The notes beneath the pieces were generated by a model that was not told where the DNA came from, did not search any database, and saw only the letters and a program-made list of their open reading frames with translations. From assembly GCA_004022145.1 (NCBI GenBank), contig RCNU01000058.1: a stretch of DNA of 9,995 bases; one strand, written 5' to 3'. Positions 1-9,995 of the stretch are shown in pieces. Source of the DNA: Paecilomyces variotii (Eukaryota). Each line of letters starts with the position of its first letter. The first letter of the stretch is position 1. Both the position numbers and the translations under genes were made by a program.

Positions 1-956
1 TTTATATAAATCTAGCGGGGGCATCTACTAAGTATATCTAGAAGGCTATTTCTTTTATAAGCATTATTATTAGCCGCAATAATATCTCTAAGATATAGTT
101 AATAATATTAAGATAAGTTATCTATTCCTAAATATCTAATAACTTATTTTAATAATATCTTGCATTTTATCTATTAAAAGAATCCTTTACCTTATAACTA
201 TTCTAATACAAATATCTGTTAAATATTCAACAACTTTTATTAAAGATATATCTATACCTTATCTTAAGCAGATGTTTAATATATTATAAGCATATACTAA
301 ATATAGCTTAAATCTAGTTTAGGCTCTATACTTAAAACAATTATAAAACCCCATCTCTCCTACTTCTTTAAAAGGATAAAAAGGATAAAATTTAAAATAA
401 GGCATATTATTAAGCATATAAATATAGCAGTATTAAACATTACAAATATATACCGGAGTATATATTTAGACAACACTATAAATATAGTTATATTAAACTA
501 AATATCTTCAAAATACTTTATAAAGAAGTAGGCTATATATCTAATACTACTTCTGCTAGTAAATTTCTTAAAAAAAAAACTAAAAATTAATATAATAGAT
601 TTCTTTATTTTTAAAATTAATAATCAGCAAGGCATTATTTTTATCTAAAAAGTAAAATATAAGTATACTTAAATTAAACTCTAGTAATCTTTAAACGGCA
701 TAAAATAAGTTTAACTCTATATTTAATCTTAGCATATATTAAATATATCCTTAGCCACTAGTTACTTTTATTAGTTGCCTATTAGCAAATAATTTTAAAC
801 TATAGCATATTGCACAAGCTATCTCTATATATATAGCTTAAATTTATATGCCTTATCTATATATCTTAGTAGCTTATAGGATATATAATACTAATACTTC
901 TATTTAATCTACTTATACCTATATTAACTATACTACTTTAAGGCGCATAACTTATA

Positions 957-1005
957 GTAGGTATTTATTCTATATATACTAGACATATACTAACTATAGG
1001 TCTAG
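957..1005 (+). other. Spliceosomal intron relic in transposase (49 bp)
   Basis: GTAGGT donor at 957, TACTAAC branch at 988-994, TAG acceptor at 1003-1005. Removal joins frame +2 to frame +3. Confidence 0.7.
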
Positions 1006-1442
1006 GATTTAATTATCCTTAAAATATATCTAAAGTCCTATATAAAGAATATAATATTTTAATTAATATTTTTATTCCTTATAATTAAGATTGTTTTCTT
1101 TTTATCTTTCTTATTTATTAAGAAGATTATATATATTTTCTTCTGTTATTAACTAAGTTAAGTTAAGATTTTATTTAAGAACTTATAGATTTAATTAACT
1201 AAAAAGATATTCTTACTATAACTGCATATATATTATATATATCTTAAGCCTATATTCTATATATGCTGACCAGATACTTATAAACAAATTCTTAATATCT
1301 CCCGAAGTATATATATTTAAATAAAAATATTAAGATTAAGCTCTAAATTTAATTAGAGCTTCTTTAAATATTAAGGATAAAATTGCTTATTTAATTTAAA
1401 AATAAAAACTTCTATAATACCTATTTAGTTTAAATATTACCA

Positions 1443-1491
1443 GTTAGAATCTATTCTTACTATATATTTTGCATATACTAATATTATATAG
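1443..1491 (+). other. Spliceosomal intron relic in transposase (49 bp)
   Basis: GTTAGA donor, TACTAAT branch-like site, TAG acceptor. Removal joins frame +2 (YLFSLNIT) to frame +3, which leads to the EIDLAYK motif. Confidence 0.7.
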
Positions 1492-1716
1492 GGATTATAT
1501 AAGAATATAAGTTTAATTAATATAGAGAAAGTAATAAATAATAAATTTACGCAATTAATATTAGTAAAACTAAAGAATATATTATTATTTATTATATAAA
1601 TGCTTAAGTAAAAGCATTTATAAAAGCTAAATATCTTGAAATAGATTTAGCTTATAAGATAATACTTAGAAATATAAATATCTTTTTGATCTTAAGCTAG
1701 AATTCCGAAGCTAAAT

Positions 1717-1769
1717 ATATATTTAACTTCTCCTTATTATATATTTAGTATATACTAACTTTATATTAG
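1717..1769 (+). other. Spliceosomal intron relic in transposase (53 bp)
   Basis: ATATAT donor (RIP product of GTATGT), TACTAAC at 1753-1759, TAG at 1767-1769. Removal joins frame +3 to frame +2 (INTYCYAF). Confidence 0.7.
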
Positions 1770-1952
1770 GGATTAATACTTATTGCTATGCTTTTATCTC
1801 TCTATAAACTTATTATATATATTTTTAAATATTTAAATTACTATTTTAAACATTATTATAAACTGCATATTAATATATTTAATAAGCATATATTTTAAAT
1901 AAAGAAGGGATACAGACTATTACTATAGATATATATAAAAAATAAATACTTA

Positions 1953-1999
1953 ATTAGTATTATCTCAATAGATATAGAGTATATACTAAGTATATTTAG
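1953..1999 (+). other. Spliceosomal intron relic in transposase (47 bp)
   Basis: ATTAGT donor (from GTTAGT), TACTAAG branch-like site, TAG acceptor. Removal joins TITIDIYKK*IL (+2) to FGNYLYSIYP (+1). Confidence 0.65.
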
Positions 2000-2843
2000 G
2001 TTTTGGTAACTACTTATATTCTATTTATCCTTCTCTTAACTAGCAAAAATATCTTAAGCATATACTTATCTTCTGCTAAACATATATTAAATACAATTTT
2101 TATAAAAAGTTCAAAAGATCTTATTCTTTTATCTATTAATTAAAATATCTATAAGATCTATATTCTTACCAAGAAATCCTTCAAACTATATACTAATAGG
2201 GTAAGAAATATCTAGATATTAAAAAATAGCTTTAAAGCAAAATAAACTATAGATTCTTACTATATTATTACAAGAAACATTAAAAATCCCTTTTAAATAA
2301 TAGAGTTATACTTAAAAGCATACTAGATTATCTAAAAATAGTTACTTCCAAGATAATTATAATATAGAGAGAAACCTATTTTTACTAGGGGCTATTTAAT
2401 AATATATCTATACTCAGCATATACTTAGTATCTATCTAGCATAAATTAAATACTAATAAGGCTAATTTATATTTAGTCTATAATAACATATAGAAGATAT
2501 TATTAAATAATAAAAGCTTTTTAGCTATAATATTAATAATATATAGCGAAACTATAATAATACTATATAAATCTCTTAATAGATATAGAGAAACAATAAA
2601 ATAAAAGTTTAATATACCTTTAAATATATACTAAATATATCTTTTAAACTAATAGAATTAAAGAGCTGCTAATTATTAAATAAATTAATCTCATTTACTA
2701 TTTAATCCTAATAATCCCTATAATATACCTTTAAATAATAGTAATAATTAATCTTCTAATAAAAATGCTAATTTTAAAGTTATTTTAATATCCTTATCTA
2801 AACCTTCTATTAAATATATACTGGCTAGAGATAAAATATCTAC

Positions 2844-3668
2844 AGAGCATATGCTAAGCAGAGATTAAGAAAAGGGTTAACCTAAAGGTTCTAGTCGTTA
2901 TTAAAGCTAGGTTTAATCTAGGATTAAGCAGACTAAGCTAAGCTCTGAAGAATCAGACTTAAATTATTATTCTCAACATAAATTAAGTGCAGAGCATATA
3001 TTAAACAAAGATTAAGGAAGAGATTAAGAAAGGGATTAACTTAGAGATTCTAGTTGTTATCAGAGCCAGGTTCAATCTAAGACTAAATAGACTAAGCTAA
3101 GCTCTAAAGAATTAGACTCAGATCATCATTTTTAACGCAGATTAAATATAGAGCATATACTAAATAGAGATTAAGAAAGGGGTTAATTTAGAGGTTCTAG
3201 TCATTATTAGAGCCAGGTTTAATCTAAGACTAAATAGATTAAACTAAGCTCTAAAGAATTAGACTTAGATTATTATTCTTAATACAGATTAAATACAGAG
3301 TATATACTAAATAGAGGTTAATAAAGGGGTCGACCTAAAGGTTCTAATTATTATTAGAGCTAGGTTTAATCTAGGACTAAATAGACTAAGCTAAGCTCTA
3401 AAGAATTAGACTCAGATTATTATTCTTAACACAGATTAAATATAGAATATATACTAAATAAAGATTAAGAAAAAGATCGATCTAAAGGTTCTAGTTATTA
3501 TTAAAGCCAGGTTTAATCTAAGACTAAGCAGACTAAGCTAAGCTCTAAAGAATTAGACTCGGATTATATTTCTTAATATAGATTAAGTAAAGAGCATATA
3601 CTAAACAGAGATTAAGGAAGAAATAGATTTAAAGATTTTAATTATATTTAAGGCTAGATTTAATTTAA
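2844..3668 (+). repeat. 147-bp tandem repeat, about 5.5 copies, coding (49-aa unit with AT-hook motif)
   Basis: Units start with AGAGCATAT-like sequence at 2844, 2991, 3150, 3297, 3444 and 3591 (partial). Lengths are 147, 159, 147, 147 and 147 bp. Unit 2 has a 12-bp internal duplication. All lengths are multiples of 3. Confidence 0.95.
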
Positions 3669-4081
3669 TACTGTCCTAATACCTAAAAGGGTTTAAACCC
3701 TTTTATTAGATTTAGATAGCTCTGCTAGTTTTAATCTAAAGCATATACTAACTCTATATCCAGCATATATTATCCAGGAGTTAAGTATAAATTCTAGATA
3801 GAATAGAGCTTATATACACTATAGTAGAGGATCCTTATTAAAAAAAATAGCAGAGACTGATTTTATTATTTAATTAAGAGAAATAATAAAATAAAGGCAA
3901 TAAGAATTTAAGCAAAAAAAAGAAGGATTATTATAGTAATTTATATAATAAATATATATATCTATATAGCTATAGTTATATAGTAAATATATATATATAT
4001 ATTTCCTTTTCCCCTATAATAAGAATAAATAAAAAAATAAAGAATATTGTATTGCAATTATTTAAAAATATAAAAAAACAG

Positions 4082-4174
4082 TCTTTAAGTATAAAAACTT
4101 AGTATTAAACTAAAGTTCAGCATTAATAATCTTCAAGCATAAAAGCTTAGCATTAAACCAAAGTTTGGCATTAA
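4082..4174 (+). repeat. 48-bp-period direct repeat, 2 copies
   Basis: TCTTTAAGTATAAAAACTTAGTATTAAACTAAAGTTCAGCATTAA starts at 4082 and TCTTCAAGCATAAAAGCTTAGCATTAAACCAAAGTTTGGCATTAA starts at 4130. The differences are all transitions. Confidence 0.85.
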
Positions 4175-4809
4175 ACATATGCTTAAGGGAGAGCTAGGCT
4201 TAAATATCTATATATTTAAGGCCTCTAAAAACTCATCCTCAGAAGAAGAGATTATAACTTATAAATATAAACTCAGCATATACTCTATATATAAAAGGGA
4301 AGAATTTACTAATAGACTTAGTATTGCGGCCATTAATACTATAAAAATATTTATAACTATAATTATAAGCACAGTTATACTTTAATTTAGTTAGTATTTC
4401 TTTATCAGCAATATATCTATTTATATATTTATTATAAGATATAGACTATCTGTGCTTTAATAGAGTTAAGACAGAACCTATATTATAATTTAATTTAATA
4501 TATATATAAGATAAATTAGAAGATTACTTATTATTATTTTTATTATTATTATCTTATAATAGTAAGATATTTTTAGTCTATATAAGGTCAGTATATATAT
4601 AACGCAGGTAAGAGTATATTTATTGCGCGCTTATAAAACAGGGTTAATAAAGATACAGAACGCTAAAATAAAGGCTAAGATTAGTTAAAGTTAATATTAG
4701 GCATATGCTAAATATATCTAAAAAGCCTATTAAGAGTTATAAATTATATATAAATAACAATATAAATAGCAATATAAATAATAAAAAAGATAGTATATAA
4801 ATCTTATTT

Positions 4810-5790
4810 ATATATTAACATATATTAAACTTATTTTCTAATAAAACTGGCTCCTATAGCTATTTCTGAACTTATTATTAGCGCAAGCCACTTCTTTATA
4901 AGATATAGCAATACCCTTAATTAGTATATTTCCTATATTAAAAGAAATATTAGCTTAATATAAGCTCTATATATATCTAAGACTTACTATAATTTATAAA
5001 TAAAGTTAATATCTTACTACTTGCTAAGTAAAACATATTTAATTAGTGTATTATATATTATTAGTATAACTCTAATATATATAAAATAGATCCTAAACTT
5101 ACTATAGCCTAATTATCTTCTTATCTATAATTATATTACTAGTCTCTATACTATAGTTTAATATTATAATAGATTAGCATATATTTAATATATACTAAGG
5201 ATAATAATATACTCGCCCCCAGGTATATAGTCTTTATATAGCATTATAACTTTAACTATTAATATATTATATATATATAGAACTTATATTAGACTTATAG
5301 CGGGCTATAAATTAATAATCTTACTATATATAAGTGGGCTATCTATATTTACCTATACCCAGTAACTATAGAAGCTTAATATATATTTAATTAATTTTAA
5401 AAAAAGGACTTATATATTCCTATTTATACTTAAAATAAAAGACCTAAAAATTAATATACGGGCATTTTTTTTAGCGGTAATTACAGGCACTATCTATATT
5501 TAGCGCATTTTTAGCATATACGCAATATCTGCTTATTAGATTTCTTATTTTCCTGCTTAGCTATAGCGTGTAAGTTTAAAATCTATATTAAATTTAAGTT
5601 AAAAACTAGGCCTATTTTCATTTAGCATATACTTAATATTAAGTGGAGATATACTTACTATAATAATACCTGTAGTTCATCAGATTACCTGCTAATAAAA
5701 TTATATTATAGGTAAGGAGTTTCTTTAAATATAGCGGCATTTTTATAGTTATATAGCAGTAATATAAAAGGGTAAACTATAATATTATAG
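4810..5790 (-). pseudogene. RIP-degraded multi-exon gene of unknown function, convergent with the transposase; limits approximate
   Basis: Minus-strand GTAAGT donors lie at 5658, 5102 and 4987, with a degraded ATAAGT at 5413 and GCGAGT at 5216. GCTAA branch-like sites and TAG acceptors give introns 5658-5612, 5413-5366 and 4987-4933. The intervening exons translate with only RIP-type stops (e.g. ADIAYMLKMR*I*IVPVITAKKNAR; YWV*VNIDSPL). I recognise no family. Confidence 0.6.
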
Positions 5791-6096
5791 AGGCAGGGCA
5801 AAAATATTATTAGGGAGATTAAAGATAATATAAATAATATAAACTTCTATATAATAGGATTTTAATATTGCTTCAGCATATATTTAATAACCGCCTTTAT
5901 ATATACTGCCTTAATAAACTGCGCAGAATAATATTAATTCTAGCTCCCTATATATATCCTAGTATTGCTCTAACCTATACTTAGCATATATTATAATACA
6001 GCATAGAGCATATATTATATATAATTCTTAATAAATATAGTTTACTGTAATATAATATAAAAACTTTATTATAAGTTATATAAACTATATATATAC

Positions 6097-6222
6097 TAAG
6101 CCCACCCAAACACTATACTGAAACTAACTTAGTGTCTGAGCTAAACCTAGATTTTTCTTAGGTGGGCTGAGCTTTTTAAATAGGCTGAGCTTAGCCCCGG
6201 CTGGGCCGAGCTATATCCCGGG
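6097..6222. repeat. GC-rich candidate right terminal (TIR-like) sequence with internal repeats
   Basis: CTGAGCT occurs at 6136, 6167 and 6185, and CCGAGCT at 6206. There is a near-palindrome GGCTGAGCTTAGCC (6183-6196) and an inverted pair AGCCCACCCAA (6099-6109) / TTAGGTGGGCT (6158-6168). It ends in CCCGGG at the Gypsy junction. The partner TIR is not in the window. Confidence 0.6.
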
Positions 6223-7862
6223 AATTTATTAATTATATTTAGCTAAAGATATTAAATATAATAAGAGAAATAAGACTAATCTTAAAATACTTAAAAAATC
6301 TTATTATAGAGAAAGCTTTATAGCTTAGAAAAAAAGAATTATTAATAAAAATACTCTTTATTAAAAAAGCTATTTTTATATAAACTTTTAAAGAGATTAA
6401 ATAAATATACTTAAAAATAATACTTCTAATTATTATTTAAATTATATAATATAAGCTATAGTAAGTAAAGAGCTTTCTAATATTAAAAGTACTTTATAAT
6501 ATAATATAAGTAATAATAAAAGAGAGAATAAAGGTTAAAATTTTTAAATAAAATTAAAGGCCTTATAAGAACTTATAATTTCTTATAAAAAAGAAAAATA
6601 ATAAATATTAATTAATTAATATAATAATAAAAGTTAATTAAATAATAATAAAAGATATTAATTTATCTTTCTTAGCTAATAAATTTTTAAAAAAGTTTAA
6701 TAAAATATTAATATCTATATTAATAAATTTATTCTCTAAATATAATTAGTTAAAATTAATAAAAGAATTATATAATTTAATAGCTTTTTATATGCTTAAG
6801 ATTAATTTAATTTATTAAGTTAAACTATTATAAGAATAAACTAATATAGTATTAAAATTTATATATAAAGTTATAAAAGCGCTTATTAATAATATCTCTA
6901 ATATTTATAATATATTTTTAAATAATACTTTAATATAAGGTCTTAAGACTAACTATAAAGAAGAGGAAGTACTGCTTAAGATTAAGAGATTTATATTTAA
7001 ATATATTTAAAATATTAATAAGGTATTATATAGTTTTAAACTTACTAGTTTAATTATTATTAGAGAGAAGTTATAATTTATAGTCTTAGGGATTAAAATA
7101 ATAAGATATATATATAATATAAAAGAAAAGCACTTAAAATCTATAAAAATAATTAAAATCTTAAAATAATTACTCTATTAAAACTTATAAAAAGTAAAAG
7201 AGTTTTTAAAGATTATAGCCTATTATTAGATATAAATTAAAAGATATATTATTAAAGCTAAGTTAATATACTTAATATTAAAAAAAAGATAAGATTTCTT
7301 TTAAAGATTAAAATAGTAAGACTTAATAAATATTTTAAAAATAGCTTTAATAATAACTTTAATACTTAAAGTAATTAACTATAAAAAAGAGAAAATAATT
7401 ATTATTAATATAGACGCTAATAATAATAAATAGAAGGTATAATTTACTTAAAAAGAAAAAGAATCTAATAAAAAATACCTAGCTAAATATAAAAGTAGAG
7501 TATAAATATAAATAAAGAGGTAATATTATAAATATAAGATAATATTAAAGGCTTTTTATAAGTTTTAAATATATCTATATAATATATACTTTTAGCTAAA
7601 AATAAATATAAAAACTTTAATTATATAATTAAATAGAATAGCTATAGACTTTCTAGGATTAATAATTACTTATTAAATTACTTAAATTTAGCTATTTAAC
7701 TTTAATATTATTTATATAATAGGAAGAAAGAACTTAGTTATAGATAAGTTATTTTAAAAATTAGTAATAGAATAAGATCTAGAGAAAACTAAAGATAATA
7801 ATATAGAGAAATTCTTAGACCTGTAGTTTTATATAGTCTATTATACTAGTATATAAGTAGAG
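6223..7862 (+). mobile_element. pol: Ty3/Gypsy LTR retrotransposon pol fragment (reverse transcriptase + RNase H), RIP-inactivated
   Basis: Frame +3 reads RPYKNL*FLIKKKNNKY*LIN (de-RIP GPYRNPWFLVKKKNGKYRLIN), NLFSKYN* (DLFSGYDQ), LL*E*TN (LPQGWTN) and FLNN at 6915-6926 (FLDD, the YxDD motif). RNase H motifs follow: IDAN with Asp at 7413-7415, YLAKYKSRV* (HPARYESGVW) and KNLVIDKLF* (KNxVADGLSR). RT followed by RNase H and then a linker fits Gypsy; integrase is absent. Confidence 0.92.
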
Positions 7863-7869
7863 TAGTTAT

Positions 7870-8058
7870 AGAAAACTAAAAAAACTAAATTAAATTAAAC
7901 TAAACCGCCTATAATTTAGTTTAGTTTATAATTTTATAAACTAAAATAGTTTATAGACTTTATAAATTAAACTAATAGTTTATAATATATTATATAGTTT
8001 TTTTAAGTTTAGTTTTTTTAAGTTTTTTAGTTTAATTTAGTTTTTTAGTTTTTTTTAA
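7870..8058. repeat. Subterminal inverted repeat cluster (AAACTA/TAGTTT; probable ancestral AACCG/CGGTT)
   Basis: AAAACTAAAAAAACTAAATTAAATTAAACTAAA (7872-7904) is mirrored by TTTAGTTTAGTTTA (about 7915-7928) and by TTTAGTTTAATTTAGTTTTTTAGTTTT (about 8026-8052). One unmutated AAACCG remains at 7902-7907. Confidence 0.75.
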
Positions 8059-8824
8059 TTACTTTAGATTAATCTAAATTTTTATATAAATCTTATTAAT
8101 CTTTAAGAACTATTTAGATTTTTATTTCTTTATAATATCTATTACTAAATATTAACTAAAAATTAATAAAATAATATTAGAATATAATATTAAAGTCTAA
8201 CTTAAGTTAAATTCTTAATATTTATATTAGCCTTTAATATAGTTAATCTAGCATAAGTAATAATTAAAAAACTTAGATCTATTTATAGTTATTATATTCC
8301 TCTAAGAATATATAGAAACTTTAAGTATAGGTAATTTATCTAATTATTCTCTTTTATTATAAATAGACTTAATAATAAATTAATTTATTTAAATATTTAA
8401 AAGACCTTAACCCCTAAACTACTTTATTTAATAATCTTTATTATTTATATTTATCTTTTCTTTTAATATATTATCTATATTCTTATTATTATTAATTAGA
8501 TTTAGTAATTTAATTTTCCCCCTTTTAAATTATTAATTATTAGGTATTATATCTATATTATTAATTATTACCTTAAATTCTTACTAAATAATAAAATTTT
8601 CAGTATATATAAGAAGTATTAAAGTATAGATTATATTAAGAAATAGTTAATTATATTAGTAATAGTAAATATTTTAAGTATTATTAAATAATTATTCTAT
8701 ATTAATACTATTTAATAAGATTATAAAAAAATCTCAGGCTATTATTATAAGAATTAGAAATTAGTATTTATTAATTCTCTAATAATTAAAGATATTATCT
8801 AATTTTAATAAACTTAATTTAACT

Positions 8825-8867
8825 TAAGTTAAAATAATATTATATAAGTTAAAATAATATTATATAA
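8825..8867 (+). repeat. Perfect 20-bp tandem duplication
   Basis: TAAGTTAAAATAATATTATA occurs at 8825-8844 and 8845-8864, followed by TAA. Confidence 0.85.
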
Positions 8868-9995
8868 TTTAAATATAATATTAAATAGAATATTACCTTT
8901 AATAAGATAAATCTAAATTTCTTAATAAGTACTAATAATATTTAAAGGGAGATAATAATATTTAAATTATATAAATATATAATCTAAGATTAAGACTAAT
9001 AAATAGATTCTTAATTATATCTTAATATTTAGATTTTAATTATTATAGTATTAAAATATCTTATAAAAAATCTTTTTATAATATTATATTAATTTTTTAT
9101 TATATTTTACTAGACCTAAGTTTTAAAATATTTAAATTTTATATTAGAATAAAGGATTATTATAATTATATATATAAATCCTTAAAATTTATATATTTTA
9201 GTATAATAAGTTTATAACTTATTATAAGCTTTAGATAAAATATCTTAGAGTTATATCTTGTATATAGTTCTTTTTAATTTTAAATATTTTATATAGTTAT
9301 TAAGATAATTAAAGATAATATTATAGATTTTAAAAACCTTATAAATTAATAGATTATTTATTTTTAATATAATAAGAGTAAGATTATAAAATAGCTAAAT
9401 TAACTTAATAAGATATTTAATCTAATATTATTTAGTAGAGGATAATATTAGAAAATAAATATCTTTATTAGCCTATAATATAATAAATTATCTAATTATT
9501 ATATATAGTTTAAGGGTATATATAAATATAAGATATATTAAATTCTATTATATCTAATAATTAAAAAATAATAATTTTAGCTAATTAATACTTAATTATT
9601 ATAATATTAAGAAATATTCTTAATACTAAGAGCTTATATTAATAAATCTAATAATCTTATAAACCTATACAGAAATCTATTAATATTAATCTAACTTAAG
9701 TTAAATAGAGAATACCTTTTCTAATAATATTAGAATATCCTAAAGATATAATAGGCCTCTATCTTTTTTTATATCTTAATTAATACTATTATTAATAGGA
9801 ATATTAATATAAAGTTTACTTAATAAAATATTAACTGTAAGTTATAAAATATATACTAAATATAGAATATAATAGCAATTTAAAATAAGTTAACTTAGTA
9901 TTATATCTTAGAAATCTTTTAATAATAAATCTGTTTTAAGCTTACTCTTTAAGCTTTTATTTAGCTTTATTATTAAGATAATATTATTATTTATA

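Follow-up and report, generated by a model that had tools for sequence, protein, structure and literature searches.

A 9,995-nt stretch of Paecilomyces variotii DNA (one strand of contig RCNU01000058.1; termed the window here) contains a tandem repeat whose majority unit now has stop codons in all six reading frames. An earlier note, made from the letters alone, had interpreted this repeat as a hidden array of AT-hooks in the C-terminal region of a transposase. The questions raised by this locus are, hence, whether the repeat was once translated, whether the encoded motif was an AT-hook and what protein it belonged to. The array probably formed the tail of a protein encoded by a mobile element itself.

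Units of the array and their reading frame

Tandem Repeats Finder detected a period of 147 over positions 3019-3645 (4.3 copies, 86% matches, 0% indels), and multiples of this period, 294 and 441, spanned 2841-3672. A profile of the unit, run with nhmmer, found five full copies (2844-2990, 2991-3149, 3150-3296, 3297-3443 and 3444-3590; E values of 2e-45 to 9e-42) and one partial copy at 3591-3672 that covered model positions 1 to 82 (E value of 1e-9). No further copy was found elsewhere in the window with this profile, the next match on the + strand having an E value of 0.66. The about five to six in-frame repeats of 147 bp described previously were, therefore, five full units and one unit of 82 nt, all in frame +1 (Table 1). 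Unit 2 contains an internal 12-bp duplication, equivalent to one extra G-R-G-R, and every unit begins with the word GCATATRYTWA. Unit 4 can be read directly: AGG GGT CGA CCT AAA GGT TCT at 3325-3345 encodes R-G-R-P-K-G-S in window frame 1, exactly as had been claimed for this unit.

Table 1. Coordinates and present state of the array units and of the adjoining features
Feature	Coordinates	Strand	Observation
Upstream part of the same multi-copy element	1811..2243	+	Window frame 2 is the sole ancestral frame open in the three unmutated fragments here; in phase with the array
A-run, one A shorter than in unmutated reads	2244..2246	+	1-nt deletion; ancestral frame is window frame 2 before it and window frame 1 after it
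Stretch from the deletion to the array	2247..2844	+	Window frame 1 has the fewest stops; open in fragments 2246 and 2567
Unit 1 (49 codons, window frame 1)	2845..2991	+	G-R-P codons at 2875-2883 now GGT TAA CCT
Unit 2 (53 codons)	2992..3150	+	Core codons at 3034-3042 now GAT TAA CTT
Unit 3	3151..3297	+	Core codons at 3181-3189 now GGT TAA TTT
Unit 4	3298..3444	+	Sole unit with an intact core, GGT CGA CCT at 3328-3336
Unit 5	3445..3591	+	Core codons at 3475-3483 now GAT CGA TCT (D-R-S)
Unit 6 (truncated after 81-82 nt)	3592..3672	+	Core codons at 3622-3630 now AAT AGA TTT (N-R-F)
Perfect 20-nt palindrome AAAAGGGTTTAAACCCTTTT	3683..3702	.	11 nt past the array; contains TAA 3691-3693

In an alignment of the units, 49 of the 56 variable columns were pure transitions (28 A/G and 21 C/T) and, with letters reduced to purine or pyrimidine, 80 of 80 positions agreed in five unit pairs, indicating that the units were near-identical before RIP. 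The GC content was 0.19 for the whole window, 0.28 for the array and 0.13 from 6241 onwards. RIP indices calculated for four segments ranged from 1.26 to 1.43 for TpA/ApT and from 0.07 to 0.67 for (CpA+TpG)/(ApC+GpT). These indices, the excess of transitions, the uniform direction of the differences from unmutated copies (62 of 62; see below) and membership of a multi-copy family together identified the decay as RIP. Changes within the units affected CpA, CpT and CpG contexts alike. Over the whole window, the dinucleotides surviving RIP were asymmetric between the strands, with 164 CpA versus 70 TpG.

Pieces of the window were present in 20 of 23 listed public runs, four of which were compared with positions 1500-4500 at 80% likeness. 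Each contig run contained 1,151 to 1,261 contig pieces for this region, these being counts of pieces and not of genomic copies. A run of raw reads (X23), derived in another study from a different isolate with the same species label, contained 16,162 reads matching this region, with differences that were overwhelmingly transitions. Reads of this run that left the window ended in GC-rich letters and gave six 30-nt consensuses, each supported by 127 to 212 reads with an agreement of 0.91 to 1.0; these were among approximately 24 of approximately 527 loose ends that were examined, alongside 40 of 1,068 differing places. By hand count, 62 of the 180 positions in the six consensuses disagreed with the window, and at all 62 the reads had C or G and the window T or A. 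The consensuses are, hence, unmutated versions of the element. Identical unmutated letters were present behind position 2566 in one contig of a plant-metagenome run (X1). Only 4 of the 16,162 X23 reads were at least 99% like the window. As near-identical unmutated copies persist in one isolate, the element family may still be active. The window resembles other RIP-degraded repeats in AT-rich blocks of filamentous ascomycetes in its low GC (0.13-0.28), its RIP indices and its transition differences. Its decay is unremarkable apart from the survival of unmutated copies in some reads and the mutation of CpG sites as well (TCGA to TTAA).

Two lines of evidence bear on whether the array was coding, the first of which is internal to the window. 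The majority unit has seven stops in frame +1, of which six correspond to a Gln or Arg codon in one or more of the units, versus 6 of 31 stops rescued in this manner in the other five frames (Fisher p of 0.002). Use of the retained C/G alleles reduced the stops in frame +1 from seven to one while leaving three to seven in each of the other frames; one three-state consensus column has C in units 4 and 5. Both the unit length of 147 and the indel of 12 are multiples of three. On its own, this evidence is only suggestive, since finding one of the six frames open is no rarity over a stretch of 49 codons.

The second line of evidence came from the unmutated X23 reads. A loose end behind 2999, in unit 2 (212 reads, agreement of 0.92), read E-H-M-P-N-R-G-R-G-R-G-R-G in the array frame, with the segment from the methionine being M-P-N-R-G-R-G-R-G-R-G. 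Reads joining 2999 to 3324 (51 reads, 44 with these in-between letters) encoded E-H-M-P-N-R-G-R-G-R-G-R-P-K-G-S, and those joining 3344 to 3060 (65 reads, 64 with these in-between letters) encoded G-S-G-R-R-Q-S-Q-V-Q-S. All three were without a stop, and the composite peptide, E-H-M-P-N-R-G-R-G-R-G-R-P-K-G-S-G-R-R-Q-S-Q-V-Q-S, was likewise stop-free. The one stop that is invariant across the units of the window (GGT TAA GGA) was CGA, encoding Arg, in these reads. This change, TCGA to TTAA, therefore indicates that CpG sites were also targets, and the motif was a run of (RG)n ending in R-P and not G-Q-G-R-G-R-P. As the reads resolve this last stop and the retained alleles open the rest, the entire 49-codon unit is open with zero guessed letters.

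These data support the prediction that the array was coding in frame +1, and the stop-free reads agree with the earlier note that the units encode protein in this frame. The codon for which that note had to assume a change of TAA to CAA was indeed a sense codon, but encoded Arg (CGA) and not Gln. The consensus peptide proposed there was similarly open in frame +1, with corrections to P-N in place of L-S at residues 4 and 5 and to S-G-R-R in place of S-S-R-Y. Joints within the X23 reads skipped 143 to 463 nt, indicating that genomic copies vary in unit number.

The frame on either side of the array

Three unmutated fragments (1811-1840, 1924-1953 and 2077-2106) were translated by hand for the region from 1811 to 2243, and window frame 2 alone was open in all three. 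The additional A at 2244-2246 was carried by the unmutated reads, as well as by 312 of the 777 X23 reads at this site. Between this deletion and the array, 300-nt windows starting at 2251, 2401, 2551 and 2701 (reaching 3000, such that the last two overlap the array) contained 5 to 9 stops per 100 codons in frame 1, 6 to 14 in frame 2 and 14 to 23 in frame 3. The translation of 2247..2844 is rich in N, S and P.

In ancestral coordinates, exactly one frame, that of the array, was open across all six unmutated fragments (at 1811, 1924, 2077, 2246, 2567 and 3000), with each of the other two frames having stops in two fragments. For a frame named in advance, the chance of an in-phase open frame over the five upstream 10-codon fragments is approximately 0.09 in random sequence. 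As sampled by the 30-nt fragments, the region from 1811 to 2596 is part of the same multi-copy element and contains a single open frame, whose phase matches that of the array. Judged on these separate fragments, 340 or more codons of the element would precede the array in the same phase, which fits a single predicted frame of 620 codons or more, ending within or beyond the array.

Beyond the array, window frame 1 encounters a TAA at 3691-3693 that is followed by 34 stop-free codons. This TAA could be a mutated CGA: the central TTTAAA of the palindrome that contains it could be derived from TTCGAA, as part of a mutated ...GGGTTCGAACCC... word. The array would plausibly lie in the C-terminal part of the protein, but, given this potentially mutated stop and the open codons beyond it, the protein may have extended further. 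A second tandem repeat was detected at 4082-4174 (period of 48, 1.9 copies, 84% matches), and an X23 joint steps back 93 nt at this point, indicating that this repeat also varies in copy number.

The hook motif and the protein that carried it

Each module consists of a (RG)3-5 run that ends in R-G-R-P-K-G-S and is followed by a basic stretch and then by an acidic Ser/Glu/Asp stretch; this layout upholds the previous description of hooks alternating with acidic, Ser-rich spacers. An AT-hook is defined in PMC4615771 as a G-R-P core with basic residues on either side, and this arrangement is present in R-G-R-P-K of unit 4 (3325-3339) and in G-R-G-R-G-R-P-K-G-S of the unmutated reads. The other five units have RIP-derived versions of the same hook codons. 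The second AT-hook of HMGA1 is quoted as RGRPKGSK in PMC11354804, such that the R-G-R-P-K-G-S core is identical to that of a known hook. The combined data support R-G-R-P-K-G-S as a predicted HMGA-type AT-hook. A scan of the mutated sequence with the AT-hook model (PF02178), which had been named in the earlier note, produced no match at an E value of 10 or less, either for unit 4 or for the array as a whole (275 residues, X at stops), a weak result given the short model and the mutated query. The only Pfam match for unit 4 and the array was to FoP_duplication, an RG-rich family, with a weak E value of 0.15.

The reading that we favor, and consider moderately probable, is that 2844-3672 is what RIP has left of a tandem repeat that once encoded six 49-residue modules of HMGA type, one with an extra G-R-G-R. 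The array would have formed a C-terminal, intrinsically disordered tail that tethered the element's protein, presumably a transposase, to DNA.

An alternative is that the array was coding but specified a disordered region of the RG/RGG type, with R-G-R-P being simply the end of an RG run; such a region might bind RNA, undergo arginine methylation, direct the protein to the nucleus or nucleolus, or form condensates. An RG box, R-G-R-G-R-G-R(-G-R-G), does occur in the unmutated reads, where (RG)3-5 immediately precedes R-P; FoP_duplication was the sole hint obtained from Pfam; and some canonical AT-hooks bind RNA (PMC4615771). This box overlaps the hook and is compatible with it, however, and R-G-R-P-K-G-S equals a proven DNA-binding hook of HMGA1 (PMC11354804). 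As the layout of a basic stretch followed by an acidic, Ser-rich stretch also seems to resemble that of HMGA, we regard an RG region without hook function as unlikely.

The hook modules of the favored reading can be compared with those of HMGA. Members of the HMGA family are small host proteins in which three hooks that differ from one another are combined with a single acidic tail at the C-terminus. HMGA1 and HMGA2 share with the array the presence of several G-R-P cores with Arg/Lys flanks on a disordered chain, and the core of HMGA1 hook 2 is identical (PMC11354804). The array differs in that it lies within a multi-copy element and consists of six 49-residue modules that are nearly identical, every one of which has an acidic stretch of its own and a preceding (RG)n run. 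Six modules in a predicted frame of at least 620 codons, versus a small three-hook protein, and the lack of a sequence homologue place the array outside the HMGA family; by analogy, it would work like HMGA without being a member.

The nature of the protein was examined by several searches. No Pfam family matched the six whole frames (X at stops) or 51 pieces of 200 residues from the three + frames over 1-6302, array-internal pieces excepted. The only Pfam matches were at chance level (Nbl1_Borealin_N, E value of 3.1; FoP_duplication, 0.15; A_amylase_inhib, 0.17). A failure of transposase profiles is expected since RIP altered roughly one letter in three (62 of 180 in the fragments). A search of the window in purine/pyrimidine letters detected no terminal inverted repeats (none with at least 72 of 80 or 34 of 36 matches), and the element may extend past the window start. 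A homologue search in which the array formed residues 466-740 of a 740-residue query returned 8,000 candidates with lengths of 407 to 1,295, none with an E value of 1 or less. A six-unit profile had one match only (P0007) among 1.84 billion representatives, which was rejected as an unrelated repeat protein; the same profile gave 920 candidates among longer proteins (94-2000 residues), none with an E value of 0.1 or less. As the queries were mutated sequence, the missing homologues are weak evidence. A transition-tolerant 40-letter pattern of 3326-3365, which by hand check fits the unmutated read letters, had no matches in metagenome contigs. Rfam and tRNA scans of the whole window detected nothing. 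Naming of the element as MULE, hAT or PIF from the 10-residue upstream fragments was rejected, as the short motif likenesses fitted more than one superfamily. The protein is, hence, a presumed transposase: the upstream region 1811-2596 belongs to the same element and has the in-phase frame, but no Pfam family, inverted repeats or homologue identified it as such.

A different alternative accepts that the array was coding but places it in a separate accessory gene or a captured host gene fragment. Pack-MULEs in plants are known to capture host gene fragments. No transposase domain was found upstream by Pfam, the array is placed centrally within the 6.2 kb of moderately AT-rich DNA and away from its ends, and the variation in unit number among genomic copies (the joints skipping 143-463 nt) would also suit such an origin. 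As a single frame remained open in each of the six unmutated fragments, from position 1811 through to the array, and no host protein with such units was present in the protein collections, we consider this origin improbable.

Attachment of AT-hooks to transposases, as proposed for the array in the favored reading, is already published for MULE extensions (PMC1702500) and Tc1-like GRPR linkers (PMC13469147). MULE transposases can have C-terminal AT-hook extensions (PMC1702500) and so resemble the array, if this was a transposase tail, in having an AT-hook located C-terminal to the core, the likeness being one of this feature and not of superfamily. They differ in that no tandem array of long AT-hook modules is described in the passages of PMC1702500 consulted. 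In Tc1-like transposases and in the Dici elements of yeast, a GRPR-like AT-hook lies between two helix-turn-helix units (PMC13469147). This Tc1/mariner (paired-like) linker is similar in that an AT-hook-like motif contributes to DNA recognition by a transposase, but it is a single N-terminal motif and not a repeated module 3′ of the gene body. The literature searched contained neither a fungal element bearing long AT-hook modules in tandem nor any link between transposase AT-hooks and RIP-made AT-rich DNA.

A more far-reaching version of the transposase reading is that the element is an active DNA transposon whose tail of six HMGA-type hook modules tethers it to RIP-made AT-rich chromatin and thereby steers insertion into old repeats. 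This version seems distinctly unlikely at present. If true, it would amount to a self-reinforcing 'graveyard targeting' that helps to explain the nesting of repeats in AT-rich blocks; in fungal genome biology, targeting and selection are both candidate causes of such nesting. A protein with six HMGA-like hooks, encoded by a mobile element, would provide a concrete candidate for targeted insertion into these blocks. The array also illustrates that DNA rendered unreadable by RIP can still yield a feature of the protein it encoded, with repeat units acting as mutual witnesses that are checked against unmutated raw reads.

Internal minisatellites are common in mobile elements. That the array is a non-coding minisatellite, with the open frame and R-G-R-P arising by chance, could draw on this, on the absence of a family or homologue match and on the fact that it is not unusual for one or more of six frames to be open over 49 codons, but is very unlikely given that the period and the indel are multiples of three, that every stop in the array frame is a RIP product, that this frame is in phase with the sole open upstream frame and that seven residues exactly match a known hook (PMC11354804).

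Other features of the window

The semi-palindromic word GCATATRYTWA had 15 matches between 290 and 5990, mostly on the + strand and often within TTAGCATATGCTAA-like words, versus 0.14 expected from shuffles. Interpretations of this word as intron branch sites or transposase binding sites were dropped: its unmutated form in the array is GCATATGCCGAAC, and collapse by RIP inflates the count. Approximately five matches would be expected by our own estimate because RIP collapses about 1,000 ancestral 11-mers onto the pattern. The excess is, hence, weak, with RIP collapse explaining only part of it.

A GC-richer island at 6100-6240 contains nested inverted repeats and repeated GGCTGAGCT words. It is situated where the GC content drops from approximately 0.23 to 0.13 and the CpA/TpG index from 0.67 to 0.07, and is probably the junction of two elements of differing RIP history. 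Rfam and tRNA scans produced no match to this island. The DNA beyond it had been described as a relic of a Gypsy element, a label for which the whole-frame Pfam scan provided no match on 6241-9995. Positions 7858-8066, where the window is most degraded, contained clustered inverted and tandem repeats composed of AAACTAAA and TTTAGTTT words.
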